A stretch of 64,000 nucleotides of DNA from an uncultured Clostridia bacterium (GCA_944336125.1 CALVLA010000001.1:96414-160413); one strand, 5' to 3'; shown: positions 27,386 through 48,534, counted from the stretch's first letter. Program-made: numbers and translations. Notes: generated from the sequence alone by a model not told the origin.

Positions 27386-27426
27386 CAAACAAAAAAAGCG
27401 GTCTTTTGACCGCTTTTATTTTTTGT

Positions 27427-28356: not shown

Positions 28357-28364
28357 AAGTCACC

Positions 28365-29168: not shown

Positions 29169-29313
29169 ACTGACTCCTTTGTAAAACGCGTATTCACGCT
29201 TAATCGTCATAAAAAGTATAACATACCGAAGGTAATAAACAAACAAAATCCATAAAAAAACAGCAATGAAATTTTTTCCTTTTTAAAAAGCGGAACAAAT
29301 CGTTCCGCTTTTT

Positions 29314-29823: not shown

Positions 29824-29965
29824 CAAAAAAATCTCCTTTAAAATTTGTTGTATGATATGAAAAAAAAGCAAAAAGTGTTAAAAAATCGTCTTTACAAAGG
29901 TTTTTTGCAGGTGTATAATAAATAAAGCAGAAATGCAAATTAAGGAAAAAATCAAGGAGACAGTT

Positions 29966-30970
29966 ATGGACAAGGTTATTCAACAAAAACTGGATGCATT
30001 GCAAAACGTAGTTGGCAACACTCCGCTTGCCAAAATCAATTTGAAATACAAAGGCAAGGAAACCTCTGTATATGCTAAACTCGAATACTTCAACTTTTCG
30101 GGAAGTATTAAAGACAGAATGGCATATTACATTTTGAAAAACGCATACGAAAAAGGCGACATCAAACCGGGCGACGAAATCAGCGAAGCAACAAGCGGCA
30201 ACACTGGTATCGCATTTTCGGCACAAGGCGCTTATCTCGGACATAAAGTCAACATTTTTATGCCTGAATGGATGAGCGTTGAAAGAATCAACCTTATCAA
30301 GTCTCTCGGCGCAAACGTAGTTTTGGTTTCACACGAACAAGGCGGATTTACCGGTTCGGTAGCCATGGCTAAGGAATACGCAATAAAGAACAACGGATTT
30401 ATGCCGGGACAATTTGAAAACGAAGCAAACGTAATGGCACACTACACCACTACCGGTCCTGAAATTTTGAAACAGATGGAAAAATTCGGCGTAAAACCTG
30501 ACGCTTTCACCGCAGGCGTAGGCACAGGCGGCACAATGATGGGTACGGGACTTTTCCTGAAGAGCCAAATTCCTGACATCAAGCTTTACCCTATGGAACC
30601 TGCAAGCTGCTCGACTTTGCTTAACGGTTCGGTTGGTCCTCACCGTATCCAGGGTATCGGCGACGAATTCGTACCTCCTATCGTAAAACTCGAAAAACTC
30701 GATGACATCATCGAAATCGACGACGGTGACGCAATCATCATGGCTCAGAAAATCGCAAAAGTTCTCGGTATGGGCGTTGGTATTTCTTCGGGCGCAAACC
30801 TCTTGTCGGCACTTTACGTACAGGAACACTTCGGCAAAAAGAACGTTGTTACCGTATTCGCAGACGACAACAAAAAATATCTGTCCACCGACTACTCGAA
30901 GGTTGAACCTGTTAAACCGGGCTTCATTTCCAGCGACGTCGAAGTCATCAGCTTTGACTCTGTCAGATAA
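29966..30970 (+). CDS. cysK: Cysteine synthase / O-acetylserine sulfhydrylase family PLP enzyme
   Basis: GNTPL, FSGSIKDR (PLP lysine), TSGNTG and GVGTGGT motifs. The start is at ATG 29966, preceded by AAGGAG. Confidence 0.85.
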   Translation: MDKVIQQKLDALQNVVGNTPLAKINLKYKGKETSVYAKLEYFNFSGSIKDRMAYYILKNAYEKGDIKPGDEISEATSGNTGIAFSAQGAYLGHKVNIFMPEWMSVERINLIKSLGANVVLVSHEQGGFTGSVAMAKEYAIKNNGFMPGQFENEANVMAHYTTTGPEILKQMEKFGVKPDAFTAGVGTGGTMMGTGLFLKSQIPDIKLYPMEPASCSTLLNGSVGPHRIQGIGDEFVPPIVKLEKLDDIIEIDDGDAIIMAQKIAKVLGMGVGISSGANLLSALYVQEHFGKKNVVTVFADDNKKYLSTDYSKVEPVKPGFISSDVEVISFDSVR

Positions 30971-34656: not shown

Positions 34657-34685
34657 CCGCCGTCCTTTCGGACGGCTTTTTGTTT
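34657..34685 (+). terminator. Intrinsic terminator after tRNA-Arg
   Basis: Stem ccgtcc/ggacgg with loop tttc, followed by ctttttgttt. Confidence 0.75.
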
Positions 34686-34758: not shown

Positions 34759-34808
34759 CGATTCCCGCCGGGAGTACCACCGCCGTCCTTTCGGACGGCT
34801 TTTTGTTT
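34759..34808 (+). repeat. Direct repeat of the tRNA-Arg 3' end plus its terminator (att-like scar)
   Basis: The 50 nt cgattcccgccgggagtaccaccgccgtcctttcggacggctttttgttt are identical to 34636-34685. Confidence 0.9.
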
Positions 34809-34835
34809 TAAAAAAGCGGCGTTGTTACGCCGCTT
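34809..34835 (-). terminator. Intrinsic terminator at the end of the island transcription units
   Basis: Stem aagcggcg/cgccgctt (34814-34821 / 34828-34835) followed on the minus strand by a T-run (plus-strand A-run 34809-34815). Confidence 0.75.
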
Positions 34836-35965
34836 TAATCATTATATCCTTCCGGGTCATTTGAATAACCAAAAATCTCCGCTCTGTACTCCGCGTTTTC
34901 ATCAAGTGCCCCTTTAAACAAACAGTTTTTTATCGAATGTTTGCCGTTAACATAACCTGTTATTCCACCCGCACAACCGGGTGAATTTATTTTGGCATTT
35001 GCTTCGCAACCAAAAATTCCGCCTTTCCTCGATATCAGCCAGTCAGGATTTCCGCTGTAACCGGCAATTCCGCCTGCACACATTTCGTAGTATTCTTTTT
35101 CTTCTGAATATACACAGGAAACTTCGCCGTTAAAAACACAATTTTCGACTGTTCCCCACGAATTCGAGCCTACTATTCCGCCGGCAGTTCCCGTCGCCGT
35201 AATATTTCCGCTTACGGTACAGTCTTTTATCACAGAATCTAGCATACTTGAAGCAATTCCGCCGGCGGAGCTTGAATTTATTCCGTCAAAATCGCTCACG
35301 TCAATATGTACGTTTTCCATTTTCACACCATAAACAAGCGCATTTTTTAGTGAGCCGAACAGTCCACCCGCGCAGCCACCGTAAGGTCCGTTGAAAATTT
35401 CTTTCGAAGTCGAAATTGTAAGATTTTTTATCGTATATCCGTCAGGGTTTACAAACATACCGGAAAACTCGTTTCCTGCGGGATAATTTCCCAACGGCTC
35501 CCAGTTTTTGACGGATGCCAAATCTATGTCGGCTTTCAAAACATAAACTCCGTCCTTTTTGTTGTTTATGTTTTGCAGGTCTGAAACAGTGCGTATTGGC
35601 ATCATTTGGCTTTGGTCAAAGGAATACAACCTGCATAGATTTGTTTGAAAAACCGTCGAAGAATAATTGTTGTACAAATTAACTTTTATGTCGGAAACTC
35701 CGCATTTGACTGCGGTCACCGTGTTTCCTTCTGCCTTGTATATTCCGTTAGGCGATTGTACTATTTCGAATTTGTCAATTTTAAAGCCGCAGTTTTTAAA
35801 AATTTCGTATATATCAAATTCTTTTTTTTGACCGCTTTCCAAAACAACGGAATAAACCTCATAATTGTTAACGTCATTGGAAAAATATCGATATGTATCG
35901 GTACAGCCGCACAACAAAAATACAGTGGCAACGGAAAGTATTAAGCTTAAAAATTTTTTCATCAA
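34835..35965 (-). CDS. GLUG-motif surface lipoprotein (paralog 1)
   Basis: Signal peptide MMKKFLSLILSVATVFLLCGC. An Ig-like N-domain is followed by the pattern RTVSDLQNI...YVLKADIDLASVKNWEPLG...FSGMF...GYTIKNLTI. Repeated AGG(I/L)(A/V/F/T)G turns are typical of GLUG-motif proteins. Confidence 0.65.
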   Translation of the reverse strand: MMKKFLSLILSVATVFLLCGCTDTYRYFSNDVNNYEVYSVVLESGQKKEFDIYEIFKNCGFKIDKFEIVQSPNGIYKAEGNTVTAVKCGVSDIKVNLYNNYSSTVFQTNLCRLYSFDQSQMMPIRTVSDLQNINNKKDGVYVLKADIDLASVKNWEPLGNYPAGNEFSGMFVNPDGYTIKNLTISTSKEIFNGPYGGCAGGLFGSLKNALVYGVKMENVHIDVSDFDGINSSSAGGIASSMLDSVIKDCTVSGNITATGTAGGIVGSNSWGTVENCVFNGEVSCVYSEEKEYYEMCAGGIAGYSGNPDWLISRKGGIFGCEANAKINSPGCAGGITGYVNGKHSIKNCLFKGALDENAEYRAEIFGYSNDPEGYND

Positions 35966-36066
35966 AACACCTCCTACTTACCGACAGACAAAACAACAAA
36001 ATTTGTAAAATAATTAAATCAAATGTTTAATTAATTGGCTTTTTTAACGTCCTTTCTTCGACAAAG

Positions 36067-37151
36067 CTACTTCTGGGAATCTTCGAAAGCAAATCCGTAA
36101 TACTCGCCTTTGTACAAAGCAGTCTCACTAAACTGACCTGAAAACGAACAATTTTGTATGCACCTTTTGCCCCAGACGTAAGCAGAAATTCCCCCGACGC
36201 TTCCCTCCGCCGTAAGATTTGCATTGACGCGACAATTAACTATTCTTGCTTGGAGGGGGTCTTTGCTGTCAGCCATCGTGTATCCGACAATACCTCCTGC
36301 CACGTTAGAAGTGTGATCAATTTTTTCATCTCTGCTTATATTTGCCACGTTTCCTTCAAACGTACAGTTTTCGATTGTGGCAAACGAGAACGCGCCCGCA
36401 ATTCCTCCGGCATAACTTGCCGCAGTAACATTGCCTTTTACACTGCAATCAAGCAAATATCCGTTATAAAGAGAGCCAACGATAGCACCGGCCGAAGCCG
36501 TCCAGCCCACAGAAGTATAGGCGTTAACGTTTACGTTTTCCAACTTTATGTTGTAAAGAAAGCCGCCGGAAATCATATCAAACAATCCGCCGCGATTTTC
36601 CGGCTCGCAGGAAGTCTCGTTTTCGATATTCAAGTTTTTAATTACGTAGCCGTTTGGATTTATAAACATACCGCTGTATCTATCAATAGGCTTCCAATTT
36701 TCAACAGACGACAAATCCAAATCGTTCATTAAGAGGTAATTGTTTTTACCTTTTACTGCCTGCAAATCCTCCACTGTGCGGATTTTAAAAAAATCCTTTT
36801 CGTCGTATGCAAAAAGCATACCCAGACTCACTTCGTAAACCATCATCGTTTCGTTGTTATAGAGCTTTGCCGATACATCGATGACACCCGTATTCTTGGC
36901 AGTAATGGTATTTCCCTTTACCGAATAAATTTTGGGAGAATTGTTTATTTCGATTCGGTCTGCTTTAACTGAACAGTTAGCAAAAATTTCGTCAAAGTCA
37001 AACTCCTTGGACTCACCCACTTTTAACGCAAAGCGATAAACTGAATAATTTTGTGGCTTTTCGTATGAAAGTTTGTAATTGTTGCATGAGCATAATGAAA
37101 AAAACAAGCGCAACAAAAATTATGAAGCATAAAAGTTTTGACTTTTTTCAT
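36067..37151 (-). pseudogene. GLUG-motif surface lipoprotein (paralog 2), with the reading frame broken in a T5 tract within the signal peptide
   Basis: ATG 37151 has a GGAGGA RBS and encodes MKKVKTFMLHNF. The frame then drifts to a stop, while the 349-aa body (36067-37116, LLRLFFSLCSC...) is in another frame. One extra T in the run at 37115-37119 would give MKKVKTFMLHNFLLRLFFSLCSC. Confidence 0.6.
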
Positions 37152-37197: not shown

Positions 37198-37226
37198 ATT
37201 ATAACAACGTCAATTTTTCAAGTCAA
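37198..37226 (-). promoter_or_regulatory. Near-consensus sigma-A promoter for the GLUG lipoprotein genes
   Basis: On the minus strand: TTGACT (37226-37221), a 17-nt spacer, then TATAAT (37203-37198). Confidence 0.65.
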
Positions 37227-37254: not shown

Positions 37255-39495
37255 TTATTCATTGTACTGAGAAATTTCTGCAATGTTCAAGCTTTTTGAT
37301 TTTGAACTGTAAACGTTATTGTATCCCTTAAATTTCAAAGTGTTGTTTTCCGAAATTTCCAATTTCGCACCGACAACGTTGGAACTACTACACAAACCGA
37401 TAGTTTTATTTTCCGTCAAAATATAGACACCGGAATTCACAGATTCGCTGTTTGAAAAATATTGTGTGCAATCCTGTCCTTCAAACACATTCGAACCATC
37501 CGGACAATAGCAATAACACCCGTCGCAACTTGTAGGAGGTACGGTTCGTGTTTCTGAAGAATAATAATTGCCCGAAGAAACTTTGATTTTTGTCGGTTTG
37601 TCTTTGACCAATCCGTTGACGGTTTTTACCACATCGGTTGTACCGTTTCCGGACAAAGTCAATGAAGAAGCTACAACCTGCCACTTGTCTGACACAACGT
37701 AAGCAGATATATTCAATTCATTACCGGCCAATACCGTAACAGAGCGAATGCCGTCGTAAGCTTTACCGTTGACAACAAAATAGTCAAAAGTATAACCTGC
37801 ATCTACAGAAGGTATTATTTTAATCACATAATTCGGGAAAATCGGTGTTGTTTCTATTGAAATAGGTTCATACTCGGCAGGACATTTATCTCCGGGATTA
37901 ACAAGCATGTTGTTTTCACACCAGCAATAGCACCCTCCGTCGCATTCCGGCTCATATTCTCCGTGAATTTGTTTTTGATAACTTATATGTATACCTTGGT
38001 CAATTTGCAAATTTAGTATTGTGCGAACGACAGCCGTAGTCGTTATGTTTACGTTGCCCGATACCTCACAAGTAACGGTTTTGTCTCCGCTGTATGCCTG
38101 CGAATTTACTTTAAACAAGTCTATCCAATATCCGTGGGCTGCCGAAGCGGTAACTGTCAACACATCCCCTGTCAAAATTTCAGCCCCGTCAGTCAAAGGG
38201 GTGCCATTTTTTGAAACCGTAACAGTTGTATTTGCCCCTTGTGAAACAGAAAGAGTAAATCTGCCCACGCTAGTAGTTGCAAGCGTTAAGTTACCCGAAA
38301 CCTCAATGGTTTTTGTAAATGATTGTTCAGGATTGCCGTTTACCAAAAGACCCGTCACGTCATAATTTGAAAGAGACGGCACGGCTGAAATCGTAAGAGT
38401 TTCGCCGTGAATAATCGTTGCGCCGTTCGATAATGATTGTCCCGACGAATTAGTGACGTTAATTGTTGTGCCTACAGCCGGGTTTAATGTCAAGGTATAA
38501 CCTGATACCGTTGAGATAACCAGCGGCTGTTTAACAGTAATCCCCGTATCAACCCCGCCTTCGGAAGTCATTCCGTTAATTGTCGTTGAAACGATTTTAT
38601 TGTCACTCAAAGCATATGTCCTAATTTGCAGATATCTACCGTGTCTTACGGTATTCGCGCTGTATTTGTTTTCTACATACCTGGTACAATACTGGCTGTT
38701 TTGAATTTCCGTGCCGTCCTCACAATAGCAATAACACGTATCGCACAAATCGCCGTAAATTTCATAGTCAGAATTATAAAGATAAATTTCCGTATTAGGC
38801 GCGGCATTGAGAGTAATAGGATGTTGCACCAAACCGTTTGCCTGAACTACAGCCGTAACGTTTCCCGTGACGGAAGCAACAGAATTCGTTCCGCTTTGGT
38901 TGAGATAAAACGTAGGATCCGCATAATTCTCGTCGGCATTTGCCGATATAGATACACTGTCGCCGTAATAAAGTTTCAAACTGCCCGCCGATGAAGGATT
39001 TGCAATAAGCTGCCCCGTATTCCCGACAAGGCTGAAACTTCTGGAAATCGAGTAAGACACGTGATCCGGAGCGGCAGGATAAGACAATGTGAATTCCTGA
39101 ACTTCCATTTTGACGCCGGTAATTTTTACATCGCTTTGGACGCTTGCCACTGAAAAGGTCTGCCCTTGTTTCTCGTAAGTAATTTCACAAGCAAGCTTAA
39201 ACTGCGTTGACGAGTGTTCCGAAAGCGTGAGATTAAACGTTCCGTCAACTCTCGAACATTTGTTGACGAAAGAAAAATTTTTCGTCATTTTGTTTGTTTG
39301 ATTAGAAATTTCAAAAGTGCCGTTTAAAGGAACGGTTGTACTGACGTCACCGGTACACAAGCCGTTGAGATGTACCGTCAAATTTCCCTCAAGCGTCACT
39401 TTTTTTGTAAAATCGTATTGCGGCTTGTCGAACAGCACATAACTGCCGTTTGACAAAACCGTGTTGCTAAAAGTTGCAATTTGTATATCTGCCAT
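37255..39495 (-). CDS. Leaderless 746-aa beta-rich protein with three CxxCYC(Y/W)C cysteine clusters and InlB-B-repeat-like modules; unknown function
   Basis: The start is at ATG 39495 (MADIQIATF), preceded by AGGAG, and there is no signal peptide. Cys clusters are encoded near 38722-38745, 37921-37944 and 37504-37527. It is a paralog of the 46511-47959 gene. Confidence 0.6.
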   Translation of the reverse strand: MADIQIATFSNTVLSNGSYVLFDKPQYDFTKKVTLEGNLTVHLNGLCTGDVSTTVPLNGTFEISNQTNKMTKNFSFVNKCSRVDGTFNLTLSEHSSTQFKLACEITYEKQGQTFSVASVQSDVKITGVKMEVQEFTLSYPAAPDHVSYSISRSFSLVGNTGQLIANPSSAGSLKLYYGDSVSISANADENYADPTFYLNQSGTNSVASVTGNVTAVVQANGLVQHPITLNAAPNTEIYLYNSDYEIYGDLCDTCYCYCEDGTEIQNSQYCTRYVENKYSANTVRHGRYLQIRTYALSDNKIVSTTINGMTSEGGVDTGITVKQPLVISTVSGYTLTLNPAVGTTINVTNSSGQSLSNGATIIHGETLTISAVPSLSNYDVTGLLVNGNPEQSFTKTIEVSGNLTLATTSVGRFTLSVSQGANTTVTVSKNGTPLTDGAEILTGDVLTVTASAAHGYWIDLFKVNSQAYSGDKTVTCEVSGNVNITTTAVVRTILNLQIDQGIHISYQKQIHGEYEPECDGGCYCWCENNMLVNPGDKCPAEYEPISIETTPIFPNYVIKIIPSVDAGYTFDYFVVNGKAYDGIRSVTVLAGNELNISAYVVSDKWQVVASSLTLSGNGTTDVVKTVNGLVKDKPTKIKVSSGNYYSSETRTVPPTSCDGCYCYCPDGSNVFEGQDCTQYFSNSESVNSGVYILTENKTIGLCSSSNVVGAKLEISENNTLKFKGYNNVYSSKSKSLNIAEISQYNE

Positions 39496-39575
39496 AAAAT
39501 CTCCTGTAACTAACAAAAAATCAACCACCTAAAAGATGATTGATTTTAGTTAAAATAAAATTTTTAGTAATTTTT

Positions 39576-39646: not shown

Positions 39647-39988
39647 TCAAAGGAAAAACAATTCAACAAGCATAAATGCCATCACGCCCAAAAGCAAAAC
39701 ATCGAGCGTAAAAACAAATTCCCAAGAGGTGTATCCCACTGTAGGTTTTTTTGGATAAGCAATTCTATAAATCTTGTAATAAACAATAATCCAAAACGTT
39801 GCCCACGCAATCGTCGCGCTTATCAGGCAATATTTGTCTATTGTTCCGCTGATAAGAAACGAAACAACAAAACAAACGCCCGAAAGGACAAACTGTCCCA
39901 ACACTGCAAGGAACCAATGTTCCAAAAAAAATGTTTCCATGTAGGCTTTTATGGATTCGCCTTTTTGTCTTTTTCTTAATTTTTTCAT
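39647..39988 (-). CDS. Small polytopic membrane protein, candidate (orphan) immunity protein, paralog of 40040-40438
   Basis: 113 aa with 3-4 hydrophobic helices. It shares the (Y/L)EH(L/W)FL...LI(E/S)G(K/T)I..(F/Y)C pattern with its neighbour. No obvious SD is present. Confidence 0.45.
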   Translation of the reverse strand: MKKLRKRQKGESIKAYMETFFLEHWFLAVLGQFVLSGVCFVVSFLISGTIDKYCLISATIAWATFWIIVYYKIYRIAYPKKPTVGYTSWEFVFTLDVLLLGVMAFMLVELFFL

Positions 39989-40039
39989 GATTTTTTAAAA
40001 TTTAACATCACTTGTCATCAAGCCAATTTTTGTTACCTG

Positions 40040-40438
40040 TCAAGTGAAAATTTTTGTTACCAATCCCACAACAACAATGGCTATTATAATGCCAACTAAA
40101 AATACAGCTGTCATCACCCATCTACCGTATAAAACCATGGACCAAGAAATATCGTTTTCAATATTTATATTTTTCTTTTTTAAAATCTCAAACAAGCATT
40201 TTCGTAAAATTTGCGTGGCTATTACAACGCCTGTTATAAAGACAACACCAAAACAAAATTCGCCGATTTTTCCTTCGATAAGCCACATAAGCAAAAATGT
40301 CGAAACTGACAAACAAAGCTCAAAAAAAATGTAAAGGAATAAATGTTCATACATTAAATAAAACTGATAATCATAAAACATTTCTTTGTCATACGGCATT
40401 CTGACGTTTTTAACTAATTTTTTTAACAACCTTTTCAT
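40040..40438 (-). CDS. Small polytopic membrane protein, candidate cognate immunity protein for the RHS C-terminal domain
   Basis: 132 aa with 3-4 hydrophobic helices and a GAGGA RBS. It lies 61 nt downstream of the RHS stop, the classical toxin-immunity position. Confidence 0.5.
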   Translation of the reverse strand: MKRLLKKLVKNVRMPYDKEMFYDYQFYLMYEHLFLYIFFELCLSVSTFLLMWLIEGKIGEFCFGVVFITGVVIATQILRKCLFEILKKKNINIENDISWSMVLYGRWVMTAVFLVGIIIAIVVVGLVTKIFT

Positions 40439-40499
40439 TTTTCCTCAATTTTTAAAAATTAACTTGTACTATTGTTTTGGTTTTTTATCTGACAATCAA

Positions 40500-43400
40500 T
40501 TATGCCAAGTCTTCCAATAAGTCTTCAAGAACCAATGATATGATTATGATTAATATTACCGTAATTATCGCTCCGGGCAATCCGCCAACAATAGAACCCA
40601 GTTTTATTATTAAGAAAGATATACCTTCTGACAAGAAAAATACTTTGGCGTTTTTTTCCAAACTATACAAGAAGTCGCCTGTTTCCGCAACATCACTAAA
40701 AAATGAAATGAAAAAATTAGTAAGAGATAATGCTATTGTAAATGATTTGTATTCTATTTTTTTTAAAATTTCAACAAAATCGAAGGATGCATTTGTAAAA
40801 TCTAATATGTTGCCGATAACCGCGGCTCCGACAAACAAAGCCTGCCCCACACTGATTTGAGTGTTGTTGAACAGATAGTCTGTTGGCGAAATAACGGCTT
40901 TTGCTTCCTTAACGTTGAGAGGTCTGTTGGCACAGTAAGCAAAGAGATTCAGCCCGTCTTTTTCAAACGACAAATTCGACATGTCTCTCATAGCCAAGTA
41001 TCTGCCTGTTTCAGGGTTATAATATTCTTTACCGGTGTAATACAAGCCACTTTCCGCATCATAATAATAACCTTTGTAACCGATGCGGAACAATGTTGAA
41101 GACGAAATATTTGTTCCTTCCAATGTTTTAGGGTAATGAGGTTTTCCGTATGCGTCATAATTTATCGCAAGAACACGTCCGCTGTCTCCGTAAATTCCGA
41201 CTACACTTCCGAAGATATCTCTGTCAAAACTGAAAACAACAAAATTATTTCCGTCTTTCATGAAAGTATCATCATCCTCAAAGTCAGGACGATAAAGTTT
41301 GACAGCGCAAACTCCAATTTCATCATATATGTAATGAATCATATATAACTCTTGCACTGTATCCTGTCTTACATTATAACATCTTTCTGCAATGAGCTTG
41401 TCACCGTCATAATAGTAGCATCGGTTTTCACTTACATTATTTGAAATAACATTTCCGTTTGTGCGTATGACAGTTGATGTTTCCCTGAACGTCCTTTTAC
41501 CGTACAAATCGTAATCAAATTTATAAGTGTCTGTCGTTTCAGTTGTATTGATGCCATGAATAATCTCCGTATTGGAAAATTGTTTTAAAAGACCTCTTTC
41601 CCAGCTAACATTTTTTCCGTTAATTTTTGAAGGACAACCCTCATTATAACTGACGTTATCGTCTATTATTGTACTTCCAAATGTATGTTTTTTCAATAGG
41701 TACGGGTTATTTTGATGATACTCAAATGAATTGTTTCCCGAATTTGTACCTGTTACGTTTTTTGCTGTAATATTTCCGTACGAATCATAATTATATGTTA
41801 TCGACTGACCTGTCAAGCCGTTGCTTTCAGTCTTTAATCTACCGTTTTCATATGTGTACGAAATTAATTCGACACCGTTTGAGGAAACTTTAGTTATGTT
41901 TCCCGCCGTATCGTATTCATACTCTCTAACAACTTCTATTCCTTGCCCCACATCGTTAAAAGGTGTGTGATTAGTGATTTCCTTACTTACGAGATTTGTT
42001 TCGACTCCGTTTTTGATTAGGTATTGATATGTTTTTTGCAAACTGCTTCTGTTTGAAAATATACCGACCGGAGAAGAGCAGTATGTTTTTTTCAATCGGT
42101 TAATATCATCTACCTCACGCTGCAAAACAATGTTATTTGCTTCCATATTAGAATTAGACACATCACCGTTGTGGTTAGGCGAAACATAAGTCACGTTTAC
42201 GGTTTTGCCGTCACGGTCAAATTGATTTTTAAAATACATTATTCCTGCCGCTTCGTTGTTTATCGCATAACCCCTGTATGCCTTTCCGTCTTTTACAAAA
42301 GATTTTTTCTTCCATACCAACTTTCCGGTACAGTTAAACACTTCTTCTTTAAACTCGTCGGTAGAATACGTTTTTTTCGTACCTGCCAAATCATCGATAA
42401 TCTTGCTGATTTGTGGTTTCGATGTTCCGTTTACGTAACTGATAGAAGCCGACTTGTCTCCTACCGAAACAGCAGTCATCCTACCGTACTTGTCAAAAGT
42501 AGTTGTCTGTGAAGAATTACCGAATGTTTTTGTAATTGTTTTTCCGCTACCGGAATTTATGACGCTGCTTGCAAAAATTTGCTCATCGTTAATTTTTACA
42601 CTAGTTAAATCACCAAGAGCAGAATAACCGAATTCATACTCGGCATTACCTTGAGATATGCTTTCTATATTACCTTTATTGTAGGTTAAAGCAGTATCAT
42701 TCACATTAACAATTTTTTCCTTGAAATTGTCGTAAATATATGTAATATTTCCTGTCGGTGAAAAAACTTTGTTCACAATGTTATGCGGCATTAAATACTC
42801 ATAACGCGTAATAAAACCGTTTGCGTCTGTTTCGAAATTTTTATGACCTGTCTGAACGTCATACGATGATGACATCACAAGACTTTTATCACTTGCAGAA
42901 GCATTATATTTGCTTACTTTTGTTTCAGTAAGATTACCGAAAGAATCATAAGTATATTCGGTAACAACATTATTTTCCAAAACATATTTGACTGTTCCGT
43001 CATAATTTGTTCGTACAATTTTGCCGTAACTACCGTAAGTTTTATTTGACAAAAGATCTTTAACCGATGTAACAGACTCAATATAATTGGGCAAGAATGT
43101 TTCCTCAACATCTATACATGCTCTAAACTGATTTCCTGCACCTTTATCTTGAGACGAGTCGTCAATCAATTTAGTTCTGTAAATTAATGATACAATTTTA
43201 TCTTGACCTTGCTCTGCAGGCTGTATCATATTTAAATTTATAAAGTTTGAGTTAACCGTATCAATTTTAAAAGAGCATTTGCTTGCAGCAACATTGCAAA
43301 TTCTTTTTTTACCGTTGCAATAAATTATATCGAATGAATTTCTGCTTTTTGCCGCATTTCCAAGAGTTTTCCTCAAATCATTAGTGGTAAATTCATTTGC

Positions 43401-44939
43401 GCCGAAAGCAGTAAGTATTCCATCAATACTTATGCCACTGATTGCTTTTACGCTATATTCGGTATCTTGTACTTCGGTTCCTGTTTTTTCTTTAACAATA
43501 AGTATTTCTGAATTAGCCAAACTTGAAGTTGCGCTTTCTTGAGAATACAATTCTTCATTGCTATTATCTGTAATATTAAATATACTTTCAATTTCACCGT
43601 CATTTTTGAAGTTATATTTCTTTTTTGCACCCAACTCGTCAGTAACAACGGTATTGTCATTGTTGTAAGCAAAAGAAGTGAACATGACGGCATCGGCAAG
43701 ACGAGCAACCTTGATTACACGGCCCAATTCATCATAAGTCATGTTTAATTCTTTGTAGTCGTCGCCGAAAATTTTAGTAAGTCTGCCGTTTAAGTATCCG
43801 AACTGCGCCTGAATACTTTCAACGGTGCTTCCGTCCACTTGCGCTTCTTTGTGAATTTTTGTCAGACGACCGTCGATGTAAGTAAACTTCAACACTTCGT
43901 CCGCGCTATGCTCGCTTCCCGTGTAAGAAATGCTTGAAAGCAAGTCGTTTTGGTATGAAAACGTCGCTTTGTAATTTCCGTTTTGAATGTAAGCTATGCG
44001 TGTGTTCGCCAAAGAATCGCCGATGTCCGAAGCGTTAACGTTGGACGAGTTATTCAAACCGCTTGCCTCATATCCGATGAAAAGGTCATTGCCCAAAGCT
44101 GAATTTATGCAACAAAGTTTGCCTTGCGGCGAAAAATGCATTTCGTTTCCGTTGACGTCGGAAAGTTTTTTGCAACTTGCAACTGTTCCCAAAAACAAGC
44201 CCAGGCCGCTCGTATCGTAAATTTTTCCGTTGCTTATATCAAAAAAGTGCGCTTTGCCGCTTGCGTCCACGTAAGAAGCATTTTGATTGTTTCCCGCAAG
44301 ATATTGATGAAAATTGGTTTTCCACCCTTTGCCTGCCTGTGTGTGAATATCCGAAAAAATCTCATCGCTGTCATAGCTTGCGCCTTTGTAAATGTGCATA
44401 AGGTTAAAAGCCGTAGCCCCGCCGCCAAACGACCAGTCGTTTCTTGAAAAATTCAAGCTGCCGTCTCGAAGGTTTACGCTTGCCGTACCTATCGAGCCGA
44501 TGTCAAAGGTTTGATAAGCGTCGGTATTTAATTCACGGTTTACGAAATCGCATTCCCTATCAGCGGTAAGTTTTACGGTAAATGACGCAGAAGCGGAAAA
44601 AGACGCCGCCGTTTTTGGAATGATTTTTACAAAAATCGTCCCTCCGCCGTTCATTTTACTTTTAGTCAAATCCAGCAAGTTTGCGGTAAAAGTGTTTTCT
44701 CCTGCCGAAAAAGTTTTTTCAAACAAAAAATGGCAAGTTTCGCAAGGCGGAGTCACCTCCGCCTCAGGCAACGCGAAAATATTTGCGGAAAACGAAGCCG
44801 ATGCGTTTACGGCAATATTTAAATTCGCTTCCGTAATTGAGTTTTCCGAAGCAGACGGATTGACCTTGTTAAAATCCGGAACAGTAATTTCAAATATTCC
44901 GTTTGCCGCAGTAAAATTTTTAATATATGTACTCTGCAT
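40500..44939 (-). CDS. RHS/YD-repeat protein (1479 aa) with no signal peptide and a hydrophobic 136-aa C-terminal domain
   Basis: Many YD repeats (YTYDSFGNLTE, YEYDTAGNITK, YNYDSYGNITA, FDYDLYGKRT, INYDAYGKP). The RHS core end is YYDAESGLYYTGKEYYNPETGRYL...DGLNLFAYCANRPLN. The start has an AAGGAGGG RBS. Confidence 0.85.
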   Translation of the reverse strand: MQSTYIKNFTAANGIFEITVPDFNKVNPSASENSITEANLNIAVNASASFSANIFALPEAEVTPPCETCHFLFEKTFSAGENTFTANLLDLTKSKMNGGGTIFVKIIPKTAASFSASASFTVKLTADRECDFVNRELNTDAYQTFDIGSIGTASVNLRDGSLNFSRNDWSFGGGATAFNLMHIYKGASYDSDEIFSDIHTQAGKGWKTNFHQYLAGNNQNASYVDASGKAHFFDISNGKIYDTSGLGLFLGTVASCKKLSDVNGNEMHFSPQGKLCCINSALGNDLFIGYEASGLNNSSNVNASDIGDSLANTRIAYIQNGNYKATFSYQNDLLSSISYTGSEHSADEVLKFTYIDGRLTKIHKEAQVDGSTVESIQAQFGYLNGRLTKIFGDDYKELNMTYDELGRVIKVARLADAVMFTSFAYNNDNTVVTDELGAKKKYNFKNDGEIESIFNITDNSNEELYSQESATSSLANSEILIVKEKTGTEVQDTEYSVKAISGISIDGILTAFGANEFTTNDLRKTLGNAAKSRNSFDIIYCNGKKRICNVAASKCSFKIDTVNSNFINLNMIQPAEQGQDKIVSLIYRTKLIDDSSQDKGAGNQFRACIDVEETFLPNYIESVTSVKDLLSNKTYGSYGKIVRTNYDGTVKYVLENNVVTEYTYDSFGNLTETKVSKYNASASDKSLVMSSSYDVQTGHKNFETDANGFITRYEYLMPHNIVNKVFSPTGNITYIYDNFKEKIVNVNDTALTYNKGNIESISQGNAEYEFGYSALGDLTSVKINDEQIFASSVINSGSGKTITKTFGNSSQTTTFDKYGRMTAVSVGDKSASISYVNGTSKPQISKIIDDLAGTKKTYSTDEFKEEVFNCTGKLVWKKKSFVKDGKAYRGYAINNEAAGIMYFKNQFDRDGKTVNVTYVSPNHNGDVSNSNMEANNIVLQREVDDINRLKKTYCSSPVGIFSNRSSLQKTYQYLIKNGVETNLVSKEITNHTPFNDVGQGIEVVREYEYDTAGNITKVSSNGVELISYTYENGRLKTESNGLTGQSITYNYDSYGNITAKNVTGTNSGNNSFEYHQNNPYLLKKHTFGSTIIDDNVSYNEGCPSKINGKNVSWERGLLKQFSNTEIIHGINTTETTDTYKFDYDLYGKRTFRETSTVIRTNGNVISNNVSENRCYYYDGDKLIAERCYNVRQDTVQELYMIHYIYDEIGVCAVKLYRPDFEDDDTFMKDGNNFVVFSFDRDIFGSVVGIYGDSGRVLAINYDAYGKPHYPKTLEGTNISSSTLFRIGYKGYYYDAESGLYYTGKEYYNPETGRYLAMRDMSNLSFEKDGLNLFAYCANRPLNVKEAKAVISPTDYLFNNTQISVGQALFVGAAVIGNILDFTNASFDFVEILKKIEYKSFTIALSLTNFFISFFSDVAETGDFLYSLEKNAKVFFLSEGISFLIIKLGSIVGGLPGAIITVILIIIISLVLEDLLEDLA

Positions 44940-44948
44940 TTTCCCTCC

Positions 44949-45725
44949 TTAATCACCTATAAACACAAACGCGTTTTTTCGAGGATTGTTTTTCATCCAC
45001 TCTACTGCGCAAAACAGCGAAAGTTTTGCGTAATTCAATTCAGAAAGCCGCTCGGTATCCCACAGTACTTTTTCAAAATTATTTTTGTACTCTGCTTTGT
45101 CATGCGGCCATACAAATCCGACGTCGGCGGCGGAAAAAATCAGATGGTGTGTTTGAATTTTCCTTTCATCCGGTTTTGCCACAAAACAATCGGCAAAACA
45201 ACCGTTTTCCTCCAGTTTTTCCCTGACTGCCCTCAAAGTAGCGCCCGTGCCCACTTTTTCAAAAACGGCGTCTATTTTTATGCCGTCAAAGACATCGCCC
45301 AACAAGTTTTTGTAAAAATCTATTTGTTTGGTGTTTCCGAATTGTCTGAAACTGTATGCGTTGTGCTCAGAAATTGTTTGTTCGAGTTTTTCTTTTAACA
45401 CTGAAAAGTCAAAACTGTTTTTGGTCTCGACAATTTCGACATTATCGAATGATTTTAGCTTTTCCTCTGTTTTTTTACTAAAAATACCTATCGGTATCAC
45501 AAACAGCTTGCTGCCTGTTTTTCGGCACTGCTCGGCAAGAGCAATGCCGAAATTTCCCGCAGTAATCTCTGCCACTGCTTGTCCGTGTTTAAGTTCGCCG
45601 CTTTTCAAGGCACTATTTATCACCCACTCCGCAAGCAACTCTTTTTTGCTTTTAACTGGACGAAAAACGTAAAGCTTCCCTTGAAGTCGGTAAAAATCAC
45701 AAAGGTTTTCCAAACTCCAAAACAT
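44949..45725 (-). CDS. Divergent CysK-fold (PLP fold type II) protein, paralog B
   Basis: 258 aa. Segments align by eye with the cysK of this window. GELKHGQAVAEITAGNFGIALA matches GDIKPGDEISEATSGNTGIAFS. AVFEKVGTGATLRAV matches AFTAGVGTGGTMMGT. NAFVFIGD matches NVVTVFADD. The start overlaps the paralog A stop (TGATG). Confidence 0.5.
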   Translation of the reverse strand: MFWSLENLCDFYRLQGKLYVFRPVKSKKELLAEWVINSALKSGELKHGQAVAEITAGNFGIALAEQCRKTGSKLFVIPIGIFSKKTEEKLKSFDNVEIVETKNSFDFSVLKEKLEQTISEHNAYSFRQFGNTKQIDFYKNLLGDVFDGIKIDAVFEKVGTGATLRAVREKLEENGCFADCFVAKPDERKIQTHHLIFSAADVGFVWPHDKAEYKNNFEKVLWDTERLSELNYAKLSLFCAVEWMKNNPRKNAFVFIGD

Positions 45726-46492
45726 CAGTCCTCCCAGTAAAGAAGTACAGTTTTACCCGGGTTCATTTGCAGCCAGTTAATAGCACCTTGTACGCTTGTG
45801 AAAAAAGTTCTTGCAGCGTTGCCCATTACGCCGAAATCACCGTTTTGATACCTGAACGCAAGATGTCCCGCCATGCTGCCCTGTACGTCAATCAGCTGAA
45901 TATTCTGATTTTTTACCAAATCGCGTATGAAAGGTTTCTTTTCATACTTTTTGTCGTCCCTGTAACATGAGTTGGAAAAACCGAATTGACACGAATTTTT
46001 CAAAATCTCGTAAAAGCCTCTCATTGTCGCGCCGCTTCCCATAAAGTCAATGAAAACATCGGGAACACGACCGAATTCGGAAACTGCCTTTTGCGCCTCT
46101 TGTTTGTAATATTCAATCATTGCCAAATCGGAAAACTGATCAAAATAGTACCAGCCCTCATTTCTCAGACGAGCAATAGCGTCTTCTTTTTCCTGCGCAG
46201 GAGTCCTGTCAATCGAAAAGCCCAAGGCGGTAATTTGATTAAACGAAACGGGATCCTCAAACTTGCCCAAAATAGGCAAAAAGTTAATGCCCCTCTGCTT
46301 GCAGACTTTTGCCACTTCTACGGCAAACCTACCTGACGAAGCGATGGAAAGCTTGTTGTTGAAAAGCCTGCCCTGCCTTTGACACGTATCAACGATATAT
46401 TCTGCCAAAGCGGCATTTTTCCCTTTAGGATTTTTGTATGCGTAAATATTACCGTTGCAGTTTTCCATAAAAATATTAAGATTTTTAATCAT
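45725..46492 (-). CDS. Divergent CysK-fold (PLP fold type II) protein, paralog A
   Basis: 255 aa with NPKGKNAALAEYIV (candidate PLP-lysine region), IASSGRFAVEVA and DFMGSGATMRGF. The same architecture as paralog B. AAGGAGAA RBS. Confidence 0.45.
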   Translation of the reverse strand: MIKNLNIFMENCNGNIYAYKNPKGKNAALAEYIVDTCQRQGRLFNNKLSIASSGRFAVEVAKVCKQRGINFLPILGKFEDPVSFNQITALGFSIDRTPAQEKEDAIARLRNEGWYYFDQFSDLAMIEYYKQEAQKAVSEFGRVPDVFIDFMGSGATMRGFYEILKNSCQFGFSNSCYRDDKKYEKKPFIRDLVKNQNIQLIDVQGSMAGHLAFRYQNGDFGVMGNAARTFFTSVQGAINWLQMNPGKTVLLYWED

Positions 46493-46510
46493 TGTTTTCT
46501 CCTTAAAAAA

Positions 46511-47959
46511 TTAAAAATATTGTTCGACCTTAGTAATAGTCAATGTTTTTTGAGGCGTATCTCCACCTTTGTAACCGTTGAATGTAAGTTGGTTTGTACT
46601 TATGCTTACAGTCGTATCATGCAAAGACGATGAACTAGACGACATTGAAAGCGAAATGCTTGTACCGGCATTGTTAGAAGTATGCAGACCTTCGTTTATG
46701 TAAATGTAATCTCTCCTCCACTCTCCGCACAAACTTCCGTAATCCACCTGACCGCCGTCGGCACAGTAGCAATAGCAGCCGCCGTCGCACCACTCTGGCT
46801 CCGTCGAGCCGGGCGCATAGTAGCGCGTGCTGTAGGATCCGCTTGAAACAGTGATACGCGTTTTTCTTCCTGCAACTATACCCGGCACGGATTTTGTTAT
46901 ATTATCCGTTGTTCCGCTAAACGTATAGGTATTTGAATTTACCGTTCTCCATGCGACAGATTGCAGTTTTGTCTCAATAGTCATTTTTCCGTTCACTATT
47001 GTATTACTGTTTGCCATAACACTGAAAAATGTACTTTGAAATGTTTTGTTTCCCACCTTAACGTAATCCAAAAATTTCCCGTTCGGAATGCTTGTTTGGA
47101 TATAAATCACATCGCCGTAAGTAATATAATCAAGGTTGTAATCACCGTAAATTGTAGGACAATCTTCTCCCCATGGTACCGAGGAGCCGTCCTGACAATA
47201 GCAATAGCATCCTCCGTCACAGTCAAATGACGGATGAGGCGGATACAAAAATTTTTTCAAACTTATCGTAGTCCCAGTATAAGGTTGCAAAACTATTGGA
47301 TAATGAATTTTGCCAGACGTATTGAAAACTAACGAAACGTTTCCGGATATGTTGGTTTTAGATGTAACTCCGGCCGTATCAAAGCCGAAAGACGGTGCGT
47401 AGTACCCGTTCTCGGCAGATGCAGATACCGTTAGGGAATCGCCGTTGTAAACATGCACGGATCCGCTATAATTAGGACTGTTTATCAACACTCCTGTTTC
47501 CGCAACTTCACTTGCCGTTCTTGTCACCGTGTAAGTGTAGCCTTCAGGACAAGCCGGATAACTAAGTACATAACCCGGAATTTCCTGATAAATTTTCGTA
47601 ACGGAAATCTGCCCCGACACATCCCACGCCATAAATGACTGACCTTGAAAAGTGTAATCCACCGTGCAATAAAGAGCCCCGTTAGAAACTGTCAGGCTCA
47701 ATGTCGCATCAATCGACGAGCACTTATTTGTGAGCTTGGCCGAAAAATTTTTACTGTTTTGTCCGGCCGGAATTTCGTAAACACCTGCAGTAAAAATATC
47801 CCCTGTCACGTTTTCGCCGCAGCTTCCCGATATACTACCCGACCAATTTCCCGATATATTTACGGAAATAGGATAGTTGGAATAGATTTCGTCAAGAGCA
47901 AACGAAACCTGCGTACCTTTACTTAAAACTTTGTTTTCGGAATTTAATATTTGTTCCAT
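46511..47959 (-). CDS. Leaderless 482-aa beta-rich protein with two CDGGCYCYC clusters; paralog of 37255-39495
   Basis: The start is at ATG 47959 (MEQILNSE), preceded by GGAGG. The shared N-terminal ~240 aa includes LSYPA(A/C)P and GDS(L/V)(T/S)(V/I)SA(S/N)A(E/D)(N/E)(G/N)Y(Y/A)(A/D)P. Cys clusters are encoded near 47198-47221 and 46766-46789. Confidence 0.6.
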   Translation of the reverse strand: MEQILNSENKVLSKGTQVSFALDEIYSNYPISVNISGNWSGSISGSCGENVTGDIFTAGVYEIPAGQNSKNFSAKLTNKCSSIDATLSLTVSNGALYCTVDYTFQGQSFMAWDVSGQISVTKIYQEIPGYVLSYPACPEGYTYTVTRTASEVAETGVLINSPNYSGSVHVYNGDSLTVSASAENGYYAPSFGFDTAGVTSKTNISGNVSLVFNTSGKIHYPIVLQPYTGTTISLKKFLYPPHPSFDCDGGCYCYCQDGSSVPWGEDCPTIYGDYNLDYITYGDVIYIQTSIPNGKFLDYVKVGNKTFQSTFFSVMANSNTIVNGKMTIETKLQSVAWRTVNSNTYTFSGTTDNITKSVPGIVAGRKTRITVSSGSYSTRYYAPGSTEPEWCDGGCYCYCADGGQVDYGSLCGEWRRDYIYINEGLHTSNNAGTSISLSMSSSSSSLHDTTVSISTNQLTFNGYKGGDTPQKTLTITKVEQYF

Positions 47960-47970
47960 AAAACCTCCAG

Positions 47971-48372
47971 TCATAAAATTCGATTGATAACGACATTTCC
48001 GATTTTTTCCGTACACGTTTTTGACTTTGTGTTTTCCTCTCCGACAAATGTTTTTACGTTTACGTTTTTAGTAAAATCCACCAAATCATCGATTTTTTCA
48101 TCCAGCATGCCAAAATCAAAGGAAATACCGTTATCCAAAGCGTATTTTCTCATAAGAGTCATTACGTATTCTTTTTTCTCCTGTCCGCTGAAATTTACAA
48201 ATTGTTCCGCTTGTTTGATAAGCGGCAAAATTTCATCGCAGATTTGAACGATGTTTTCCGCCGTTGTTTTTGCTTTTTCACTTTTCAAAAACTTTGCGAT
48301 AAATGTGATAACCGCAATTATCAGGCTAATTACAGTGCCTGCCAACGAAATGATAATTTCCGCATTTTCCAC
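47971..48372 (-). CDS. Holin-like small membrane protein (resembles the LL-H phage holin family)
   Basis: 133 aa with a GTG start preceded by AGGAGG. It has a single N-terminal TM (IIISLAGTVISLIIAVITFIAKFL), then a helical domain with AEQ...GQEKKEYV...D..ID pattern as in Holin_LLH proteins. This is recognised from memory only. Confidence 0.4.
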   Translation of the reverse strand: MENAEIIISLAGTVISLIIAVITFIAKFLKSEKAKTTAENIVQICDEILPLIKQAEQFVNFSGQEKKEYVMTLMRKYALDNGISFDFGMLDEKIDDLVDFTKNVNVKTFVGEENTKSKTCTEKIGNVVINRIL

Positions 48373-48462
48373 AACTTTTTCCTCCTTTGCAAAATCAAGT
48401 ATAGTTATCGCTAAAAACAGAATTCAATAGTAGCTGTCAATATAAAATTTTTTATAAAAAAC

Positions 48463-48492
48463 AAAAAACCGACGATGAGACGTCGGTTTTTT
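48463..48492. terminator. Bidirectional intrinsic terminator separating the polysaccharide locus from the island
   Basis: Stem ccgacg/cgtcgg (48469-48474 / 48481-48486), flanked by A6 and T6. Confidence 0.75.
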
Positions 48493-48534
48493 ATGTTAAT
48501 TTTAGTTTTTTTACGTTGTATAAAAAAAGCGCCG

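Follow-up and report, generated by a model that had tools for sequence, protein, structure and literature searches.

The minus strand of a 64,000-nucleotide stretch of DNA from an uncultured Clostridia bacterium (GCA_944336125.1 CALVLA010000001.1:96414-160413; hereafter the window, with positions counted from its first letter) encodes a leaderless RHS-repeat toxin together with a holin-like protein, cysteine-rich (Cys-knot) fibre-like proteins, two CysK-fold proteins and small membrane proteins. The best explanation of this locus is a polymorphic-toxin island that a spore-forming, uncultured lineage of Clostridia acquired horizontally. It encodes an RHS cocoon toxin, for which shell, C-terminal toxin and immunity gene are swapped in the form of cassettes, and its first gene codes for a bona fide homologue of phage holins. 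By analogy, we propose that this holin may provide the exit for the leaderless RHS protein, lytically or non-lytically, and that release would most likely follow the holin route known for clostridial toxins, a reading about which our confidence is evenly split.

Seven co-directional genes lie tightly packed on the minus strand from 48372 to 39647, with intergenic distances of 11, 18, -1, 9, 61 and 51 nt in transcription order. The stop codon of the third gene and the start codon of the fourth share one nucleotide (TGATG at 45723-45727), and a Shine-Dalgarno (SD) sequence (GGAGG, AAGGAG or GAGG) stands upstream of all genes but the last. A first-pass annotation of the window had described this packing, overlap, spacing and pattern of ribosome-binding sites, as well as the gene order (holin-like protein, 482-aa protein with Cys clusters, two CysK-fold paralogues, 1479-aa RHS protein, two multi-transmembrane proteins), and both stood after mapping of the open reading frames (ORFs) and a check of start sites and ribosome-binding sites. 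Its placement of the module's end at 39647 was wrong: a 746-aa paralogue of the Cys-cluster protein (37255..39495, minus strand) belongs to the island as well, and a weak terminator-like hairpin (39517-39547) lies between that gene and the immunity genes.

At the other end, the 5' boundary of the operon is marked by a bidirectional intrinsic terminator (48461..48494, minus strand; a 14-bp stem followed by a T-run), which ends the upstream Bac_transf gene. The sigma-A-like promoter candidate upstream of the holin-like gene (TTGAAT-18-TATACT, 48398..48427, minus strand) is a moderate consensus match only; a TTGAAT box also precedes the holin gene in L004 and L018, L-labels denoting here the relatives' loci on metagenomic contigs, which were annotated with hidden Markov models (HMMs) built from the window proteins. 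When the aligned upstream regions were inspected by eye for sporulation-specific or TcdR-type promoters, sigma-A-like boxes alone were seen. The GC content of the island is 0.34-0.42, compared with 0.44-0.48 around it. In the window's own species a cell-wall polysaccharide locus harbours the island, and the sister strains L008 and L009 have it at this same site; other lineages have different flanking genes. Upstream of the operon, genes for polysaccharide synthesis and phosphate transport were identified through Pfam matches of their sister-strain copies.

The fifth gene (40500-44939, minus strand) encodes the toxin, a leaderless protein of 1479 aa that starts MQSTYIKNFTAANGIFEITV. It matches the RHS/YD families (PF05593 RHS_repeat, E 3.4e-12; TIGR01643 YD_repeat_2x, E 2e-10) and carries the Rhs-associated core at aa 1261-1344 (40908-41159; Rhs_assc_core, TIGR03696, 44.4 bits versus a cut-off of 32.5), and PF25023 TEN_YD-shell is recorded on the sister-strain RHS protein. 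After the core comes the C-terminal toxin tip (CT; aa 1345-1479, 40503-40907, minus strand), which is hydrophobic and glycine-zipper-like, with two transmembrane (TM)-like segments at aa 1433-1471, and which is probably membrane-depolarising. The window protein reads ...EKDGLNLFAYCANRPLNVKEAK, with no DPxG[LH] after NRPLN; the main RHS protein of L008 and an orphan copy of the window CT carry DPTGH and DPSGH. The next gene (40040..40438, minus strand) encodes a putative cognate immunity protein of 132 aa with three TM segments, which would neutralise the glycine-zipper tip and which travels with the CT in an orphan cassette of L008. The last of the seven (39647..39988, minus strand; no SD sequence) encodes a 113-aa protein with two TM segments, a weak paralogue of the 132-aa protein (E 5e-5) and a probable spare or orphan immunity gene product; neither protein matches any family.

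That these parts are exchanged is seen most clearly in the sister strain L008, whose island is 97% identical to that of the window at the nucleotide level up to RHS codon ~395. Past this point the two RHS proteins are ~25% identical and different small genes follow. The break-point of recombination at ~aa 395 separates the conserved start of the shell (aa 136-395, 43755..44534, minus strand; ~97% identical to the sister strain) from the variable shell and toxin tip (40500..43754, minus strand). Downstream, L008 holds two orphan fragments that start in or just after the Rhs core, and one of these consists of the window CT and the gene for the 132-aa TM protein at 91% nucleotide identity. The window's toxin tip and immunity gene are thus kept in L008 as a silent orphan cassette, which is the classic architecture of RHS displacement and orphan cassettes. 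Consistently, the 90%-identity cluster of the window RHS protein has a single member, versus 13-30 for the clusters of its neighbours. CTs and immunity genes differ among L004, L016, L100 and L103 as well: hydrophobic or glycine-zipper CTs occur in the window, L008, L016 and P0093, and a beta-rich CT in L100.

None of the large proteins of the island carries a leader. The RHS protein, both Cys-knot proteins and both CysK-fold proteins have no N-terminal hydrophobic segment (maximal Kyte-Doolittle (KD) value of a 19-residue window in the first 45 aa ≤0.86; ≤0.37 for the RHS N-terminus), and no upstream extension can supply a signal peptide because the listed ORFs are maximal. Hydropathy thereby agrees with the first-pass annotation, which had seen no Sec or lipoprotein signal. 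It had also seen no genes of type VII or type VI secretion systems (T7SS, T6SS) in the window; we likewise found none of these families among 30 further window ORFs of at least 154 aa, a search that did not exhaustively cover small ORFs of WXG100 size. Scans of the window gave no LXG, WXG or FtsK-type match, and no Lap-, WXG- or EssC-like gene was present in any of the ~10-20-kb neighbourhoods of relatives that were examined.

The N-terminus of the RHS protein also has no recognised targeting domain, in keeping with the earlier annotation: it has no match in Pfam, NCBIfam or PHROGs, and AlphaFold2 (AF2) models it as a jelly-roll rather than as an LXG/WXG-like helical bundle. The distinct domain is shorter than the ~190 aa first assigned to it, about 127-135 aa (aa 1-135, confident over aa 1-127; 44535..44939, minus strand), with a block-mean pLDDT of 66-96 over aa 1-130 (mostly >80) and of 30-40 past that. 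It is an eight-stranded jelly-roll beta-sandwich in the model, with a CxxC at aa 66-69, and residues 2-10 already belong to one of its beta-strands. Its Foldseek matches are the TGF-beta LAP arm domain, viral capsid jelly-rolls and Bacillus Ena fibre subunits, that is, generic matches that, for the modelled fold, indicate no secretion-targeting domain. Searched exhaustively with HMMER, 1.84 billion (1.84e9) representatives yielded three true relatives, all of them RHS N-termini of this family; two further matches were rejected as spurious PKD-like repeat proteins. A word-index homologue search gave nothing for aa 1-180 and two fragments for aa 1-395, apparently owing to a limitation of the index.

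The first gene (47971..48372, minus strand; GTG start) encodes a 133-aa homologue of LL-H-type holins. The protein matches PF09682 Holin_LLH (E 2.3e-6; 28.4 bits, gathering score 24.9) and PHROG 6918 'holin' (E 7e-9). Hydropathy gives a single TM segment at aa 6-24 (KD 2.66) with an acidic N-terminus and a basic C-flank, for which an N-out/C-in topology is predicted, followed by an amphipathic helix at ~aa 31-60 and a helical cytoplasmic domain. Four phage contigs in IMG/VR encode homologues with 32-36% identity, and on two of them (L012 and L014) the homologue adjoins endolysin-like genes with CHAP/NlpC-P60-type and SH3-type features, as read from translations with no HMM; such neighbours are consistent with an origin from a lysis cassette. 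The proposed identity of the 133-aa product, a membrane protein from a phage holin family, was thus upheld by Pfam, PHROGs, its TM segment and its phage homologues.

Orthologues of this holin conserve its VINRIL tail. The C-terminus (window 47971-47990; L003, L004, L018 and L100) reads V(V/I)N(R/Q)(I/L)L after a variable low-complexity linker, whereas second-copy holins do not have it and end in CDC(D/T)C instead. This suggests, from the alignment, that the tail of the primary holins is a short docking motif. The idea that it (...N-R/Q-I/L-L) docks in a CysK-like active site, as the tails of CysE and CdiA-CT do, is weakened because PALP-A, the first of the island's CysK-fold proteins, also occurs in loci with no holin.

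Comparison of neighbourhoods showed the same gene set in at least eight diverged metagenomic lineages, with amino-acid identities of 27-80%, so that what the first-pass annotation had proposed as a unit is indeed conserved together in relatives. With Cys-knot proteins named by their length in aa and the CysK-fold proteins PALP-A, PALP-B and PALP-A' abbreviated to A, B and A', the gene order is holin-Cys482-A-B-RHS in the window, L001, L008 and L009; holin-Cys491-A-B-RHS-immunity-Cys285-holin2 in L004, L005 and L006; Cys478-holin-A-B-RHS in L003; holin-Cys393-A-B-A'-RHS, with a divergent ECF sigma-factor gene, in L018 and L019; holin-Cys486-A-B-A'-RHS-immunity in L100; Cys483-A-RHS in L002, where the contig ends; Cys747-A-B-RHS in L010 and L011, where the contig also ends and where a gene for a leaderless Amidase_3 protein with two PG_binding_1 domains lies directly upstream; and Cys656-A-RHS-immunity in L016, L017, L007 and L106, a complete locus with no LL-H holin. 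The amidase gene (L010 8657-9721; L011 171-791) is endolysin-like and lies where other lineages have the holin. A holin is present in five of the eight lineages, with two copies in one of them, and all six copies adjoin a Cys-knot gene.

One sampled lineage (L103 and L104), in which the tip of the first-module RHS protein is closest to those of P0093 and L100, has a second module of the order Cys283-holin2-RHS2-lipoprotein immunity and no PALP gene. RHS2 (1360 aa; L103 3097-7179, L104 2403-6485) is leaderless, begins at the shell without a jelly-roll N-domain and ends in an HExxH-containing CT; genes for a 283-aa Cys-knot protein and a 118-aa second holin-like protein lie upstream, and a lipoprotein immunity candidate downstream. 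RHS proteins that do bear the N-domain have two invariant partners, a Cys-knot protein and PALP-A, and PALP-A co-occurs strictly with the jelly-roll domain, being missing solely from the RHS2 module. Identity to the window proteins is 69-80% for PALP-A, 55-58% for PALP-B, 50-54% for the holin, 38-56% for the Cys-knot proteins and 27-36% for the RHS N-domain. The PALP-A profile had no match among 185,579 GTDB species representatives and found one locus in JGI metagenomes. Neither it nor the Cys-knot profile had a match in IMG/VR, and a phage-borne origin of the whole module was rejected for that reason. In the literature that we searched, no RHS toxin is described in association with an LL-H holin, with Cys-knot proteins or with CysK-like enzymes.

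The Cys-knot proteins are themselves leaderless. Cys482 (46511..47959, minus strand; ATG at 47959) has two five-Cys knots of the form CDGGCYCYCxDG...C at aa 247-267 and 391-411 and a conserved C-terminus, TKVEQYF; its longest possible ORF likewise has no signal peptide. Scans of Pfam, NCBIfam and PHROGs found no family for it. Its AF2 model (mean pLDDT 92) is an all-beta chain of sandwich domains in which the N-terminal residues form a strand. Foldseek gave weak matches alone: on one side adhesin or pilus proteins of Gram-positive bacteria, among them B. anthracis TIE and PitA, on the other phage fibre proteins or 'bacterial repeat' proteins; against the PDB and BFVD, multi-domain matches reached a TM-score of at most 0.41 under either normalisation, and no family was assigned. 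Cys746, which has its own SD sequence, is 32% identical to Cys482 (E 6e-45) and contains three knots of the CDGGCYCYC type and InlB-B-repeat-like inserts, long paralogues matching the InlB-B repeat weakly. Two or three five-Cys knots per protein are invariant across the family, which has 16 members among 5.8 billion (5.8e9) clustered proteins, all metagenomic or from a Clostridia metagenome-assembled genome. In L010 a 747-type Cys-knot protein stands at the first position of the module. In L016 (~4640-4705), L017 and L007, loss of a single base just ahead of the second Cys knot has broken the Cys-knot gene into parts of 437 and 221 aa, whereas P0012 and L106 have the intact 656-aa version; the split copies represent either a strain-level pseudogene or an assembly error.

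PALP-A (255 aa; 45725..46492, minus strand) and PALP-B (258 aa; 44949..45725, minus strand) both match PF00291 and resemble CysK-fold, pyridoxal-phosphate (PLP)-dependent enzymes; the identity between the two is 24% (E 2e-13). Their best NCBIfam matches (SbnA, CysK, CysM) score 21-61 bits versus cut-offs of ~350, and by sequence they belong to the PALP superfamily only. In PALP-B the Schiff-base lysine is retained (SKK, opposite SVK in the alignment), as are TAGNFG and GTGAT. In PALP-A the G-K25 dipeptide is invariant but shifted by one residue relative to the lysine of CysK, and the Asn-loop is changed to SSGRFA. An identity as O-acetylserine sulfhydrylase of the CysK/CysM type was ruled out by the scores, by the length of 255-258 aa and by the lysine register and Asn-loop of PALP-A. 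Across lineages PALP-A is 69-80% identical, more than any other protein of the module, and it may be predicted to have an enzymatic or tightly constrained binding role, for which this very high conservation argues. A third gene, A', whose product is 60% identical to PALP-A, lies between PALP-B and RHS in L018 (12687-13523) and L100 (3924-4691). Elsewhere in the window (29933-30970, plus strand) there is a full-length canonical PALP enzyme of 345 aa (E 1.6e-66), because of which PALP-A and PALP-B are regarded as extra copies and not as the housekeeping enzyme.

These components suggest the following sequence of events. With N-termini that are structural beta-strands and not signal peptides, the RHS and Cys-knot proteins would fold in the cytoplasm and would therefore be released in the folded state. 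Their most likely exit would be the phage-derived LL-H-type holin encoded by the first gene, helped by an endolysin-like amidase such as the one at the holin position in one relative. Passage might be local and non-lytic, as proposed for TcdE and TpeE, or might involve lysis of a producing sub-population, as for colicins and for Tc toxins with their type 10 secretion systems (T10SS). The Cys-knot proteins would most likely be co-released as binding or targeting components, and may have been co-opted together with the holin from the tail-fibre/lysis region of a phage. In the least supported step, the CysK-fold enzymes would modify or escort the RHS N-domain, or make a small molecule that the system needs.

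The closest precedents are the holin-linked toxins of Clostridia (TcdE-TcdA/B, TpeE-TpeL, TcsE-TcsL, and UviB-Bcn5 with the UviA sigma factor and an amidase). Clostridia that have no Tat system use holins for leaderless large toxins and for Bcn5, and the hydrophobic C-terminus of Bcn5 has been argued to preclude Sec transport (PMC9527704). The island shares with these loci a Tat-less Clostridia host and a large leaderless toxin encoded beside a small phage-derived holin, and its toxin likewise has a hydrophobic C-terminus. A short TM segment followed by an amphipathic helix, as in the window holin, is highlighted for TpeE and TatA in a review of non-lytic holin transport (PMC9527704). Two relatives each share one further feature with these loci, L010 with its adjacent amidase and L018 with its divergent ECF-type sigma factor. 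The island differs, however, in that its holin belongs to another family (Holin_LLH, PF09682) and is not found in every lineage, in that its cargo is an RHS protein with immunity and orphan cassettes and not a glucosyltransferase toxin or a Bcn5-type amidase, and in that the clostridial loci have no counterpart of the Cys-knot fibre proteins and CysK-fold enzymes.

A second precedent comes from the Gram-negative Tc (ABC) toxins, complexes with an RHS subunit, TcC, that are released by T10SS lysis cassettes, which in some cases lie within the Tc operon (PMC10847048). In Yersinia entomophaga (YenTc, YenLC; PMC10847048), as in the island, a leaderless RHS cocoon carries a C-terminal toxic moiety, and a repurposed phage lysis function, encoded at times in the toxin operon itself, serves for release. 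Unlike the island, these are Gram-negative systems with holin, endolysin and spanins. Tc toxins also need TcA and TcB, whereas Pfam and NCBIfam found no TcA, TcB or SpvB domain in the island operon and Foldseek no TcA-like fold match for the Cys-knot protein; and they target animal cells, whereas the immunity genes and orphan cassettes of the island are typical of inter-bacterial toxins. A T10SS comprises a holin and a dedicated peptidoglycan hydrolase outside a prophage, with spanins added in diderms; no phage genes flank the window holin, which stands alone, and a hydrolase was seen solely in L010. Colicin operons, too, combine a leaderless toxin, its cognate immunity gene and a small membrane-acting release gene, with release at the expense of, or through, the producer's envelope (PMC3482391). 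They are, however, plasmid-borne, SOS-controlled and Gram-negative, have no RHS shell, and use a lipoprotein and not a holin as lysis protein.

With the Gram-positive RHS/WapA and LXG toxins the island shares the YD/RHS shell, the Rhs-associated core, a variable CT, downstream immunity and orphan cassettes. It differs from them in having no signal peptide or LXG/WXG domain on the RHS protein and no T7SS genes nearby, in its family-specific jelly-roll N-terminus, and in the size of the swapped cassette, which covers about three-quarters of the shell and not the CT alone. The locus therefore belongs to the RHS polymorphic-toxin class and its holin to the Pfam family Holin_LLH, but it is not a T10SS, T7SS/LXG, WapA-type or Tc toxin locus, because the features that define these were looked for and are absent. 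The novelty claimed for it in the first-pass annotation holds in part: the gene set is undescribed in the literature searched, but release by holins has precedents (PMC10847048, PMC9527704). The class of mechanism was anticipated; novelty lies in the accessory proteins and in the extension to RHS toxins of Gram-positive bacteria.

For the CysK-fold proteins, CysK, CysM and their moonlighting complexes (CysE-CysK, CdiA-CT(EC536)-CysK, CysM-CysO) offer a comparison. The fold-type II PLP core is shared, and PALP-B keeps the Schiff-base lysine and the phosphate-binding glycine loop. The PALPs differ in being ~50 aa shorter and in being encoded by the toxin producer within the toxin operon, and no partner with a conserved C-terminal isoleucine was found for them. 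CysM uses the thiocarboxylate of CysO. CysK activates the toxin CdiA-CT(EC536) and is thus already known as a partner of a bacterial toxin (PMC5562914). By analogy one may speculate that either precedent is relevant to the role of the PALPs.

Several observations weigh against release through the holin. The complete locus of L016 has no LL-H holin and none lies upstream in L106, so the holin would be either dispensable or supplied from elsewhere. The window protein scores 16.7 bits with the NCBIfam equivalog model holin_LLH (TIGR01673), under its cut-off of 34.75, and holin activity is ascribed to this family on the basis of annotation. No endolysin or peptidoglycan hydrolase adjoins the operon in the window, where the sole Amidase_3 gene is ~35 kb away. 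A T7SS or another system could be encoded elsewhere in the genome, beyond the 64-kb window, and a simple holin-release model does not explain two conserved PLP-type enzymes. Independently of the holin's role, the N-domain is probably not the export signal, because RHS2, which does not have it, follows a Cys-knot/holin pair and because the domain tracks PALP-A. The earlier suggestion of a trafficking domain for a holin route is not favoured on the same grounds: RHS2 keeps the pair without the domain, and the Cys-knot proteins do not share it, BLASTP and hhalign having found no similarity between them and the N-domain that would point to a common export domain.

In an alternative reading, release does not depend on the holin, which would be an accessory passenger, and a cytoplasmic complex of RHS N-domain, Cys-knot protein and PALP-A would leave the cell by general autolysis, by lysis of the mother cell at sporulation, by deposition on the spore surface, as with other leaderless Cys-rich spore proteins, or by an unknown dedicated route. 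We consider this unlikely, though it fares best among the alternatives. It fits with an invariant core of Cys-knot protein, PALP-A and RHS protein in eight of eight lineages and the lack of a holin in the complete L016/L106 locus, with the exceptional conservation of PALP-A and its tracking of the jelly-roll domain, and with a spore-forming host that has GerA, GerB and GerC genes in the window. The N-domain also resembles, among other jelly-rolls, the endospore-appendage subunits Ena of Bacillus, but this likeness is a generic jelly-roll similarity (TM-score ~0.34), and the promoter candidates are sigma-A-like and not of the sigma-E or sigma-K type, which counts weakly against a sporulation role. 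The holin, moreover, occurs in most lineages, is duplicated in one and always stands beside a Cys-knot gene, and an architecture of polymorphic toxins and immunity proteins implies delivery to other cells and not a structural function in spores.

A more elaborate version of holin-dependent release, which we regard as doubtful, is a dedicated and hitherto unrecognised Gram-positive delivery system for folded RHS cocoons. The CysK-family PLP enzyme, or the pair, would recognise the N-domain or modify it covalently, the Cys-knot fibre would dock on the cytoplasmic domain of a TatA/TpeE-like LL-H holin, and the toxin-fibre complex would cross the membrane of Tat-less Clostridia non-lytically, after which the fibre would bind target cells.

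It is very improbable that the module acts inside its producer, in abortive infection or programmed death, with the membrane-active RHS tip and the holin killing an infected cell and nothing being exported. All components are leaderless, the toxin tip appears membrane-active, the holin is phage-derived and the island looks mobile and is low in GC, as such a role might lead one to expect. No PADLOC defence family, however, matches any of the eight proteins, and the swapping of cognate and orphan immunity cassettes is a signature of inter-bacterial polymorphic toxins. One relative pairs a lipoprotein immunity candidate with an HExxH toxin, which points to action outside the membrane, and the Cys-knot proteins are adhesin- or fibre-like in architecture. 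Most characterised Gram-positive RHS/WapA and LXG toxins are exported by Sec or the T7SS, only 64 kb of the genome was seen and SecA is encoded within it, yet we find it hardly credible that the RHS protein is exported by Sec or a T7SSb encoded outside the window with the holin-like gene unrelated to export, because a signal peptide is impossible at N-termini that are maximal and form beta-strands in folded domains, the N-domain is a beta jelly-roll and not an LXG/WXG helical domain, the neighbourhoods of relatives hold no Lap-, WXG- or EssC-like genes, and the RHS cocoon, folded, ~165 kDa in size and hydrophobic at its tip, would be a poor Sec substrate.

The 30 further window ORFs of at least 154 aa that were scanned are housekeeping, sporulation and transport genes, including those for SecA, GerA/B/C, LeuRS, FTHFS and a phosphate-transport ATPase. 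The host FTHFS is at most 68% identical to that of any GTDB representative, its best match being Ca. Heteroclostridium (Clostridia incertae sedis). Next to the island (34835-37116, minus strand) lie genes for two tandem paralogous GLUG-motif proteins, the 376-aa one with a lipoprotein-type signal LSVATVFLLCGC; they were rejected as part of the module, since they have a strong promoter-like site of their own (TTGACT-17-TGnTATAAT at 37198-37226) and are absent from the relatives' loci. Two copies of one 18-nt terminator hairpin, GCCGTCCTTTCGGACGGC with a T-run after it, lie 123 nt apart at 34659-34676 and 34782-34799 (plus strand), suggestive of a short direct repeat in the interval from leuS to the GLUG genes. 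Beside secA (8545-10908, minus strand) is the gene for a surface-type repeat protein of 787 aa with three Listeria-Bacteroides repeat (Flg_new) domains. Two ORFs at 27382-28395 and 28419-29255 (plus strand) were discarded as shadow ORFs, having no Pfam match and overlapping the opposite-strand transketolase genes at 27427-28356 and 28365-29246.

How Gram-positive bacteria export large, pre-folded toxins that have no Sec, Tat or T7SS signal is understood only for a few toxins of pathogens (TcdA/B, TpeL, TcsL, Bcn5). The island described here extends the theme of holin-linked leaderless toxins to the RHS polymorphic toxins of gut or rumen Clostridia. Its ecological reach is probably narrow, because the family is rare (16 Cys-knot proteins, none of them in GTDB species representatives). 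It brings with it three new, testable parts: a jelly-roll N-domain specific to the family, a Cys-knot fibre protein that is modelled with high confidence, has no assigned family and stands beside every holin, and very conserved CysK-fold enzymes whose occurrence follows that of the N-domain. Action of these PLP enzymes on the toxin, should it occur, would be a new kind of toxin maturation; and if the holin route is confirmed, the repurposing of phage lysis genes would span the RHS toxins of Gram-negative bacteria, with Tc and the T10SS, and those of Gram-positive bacteria.

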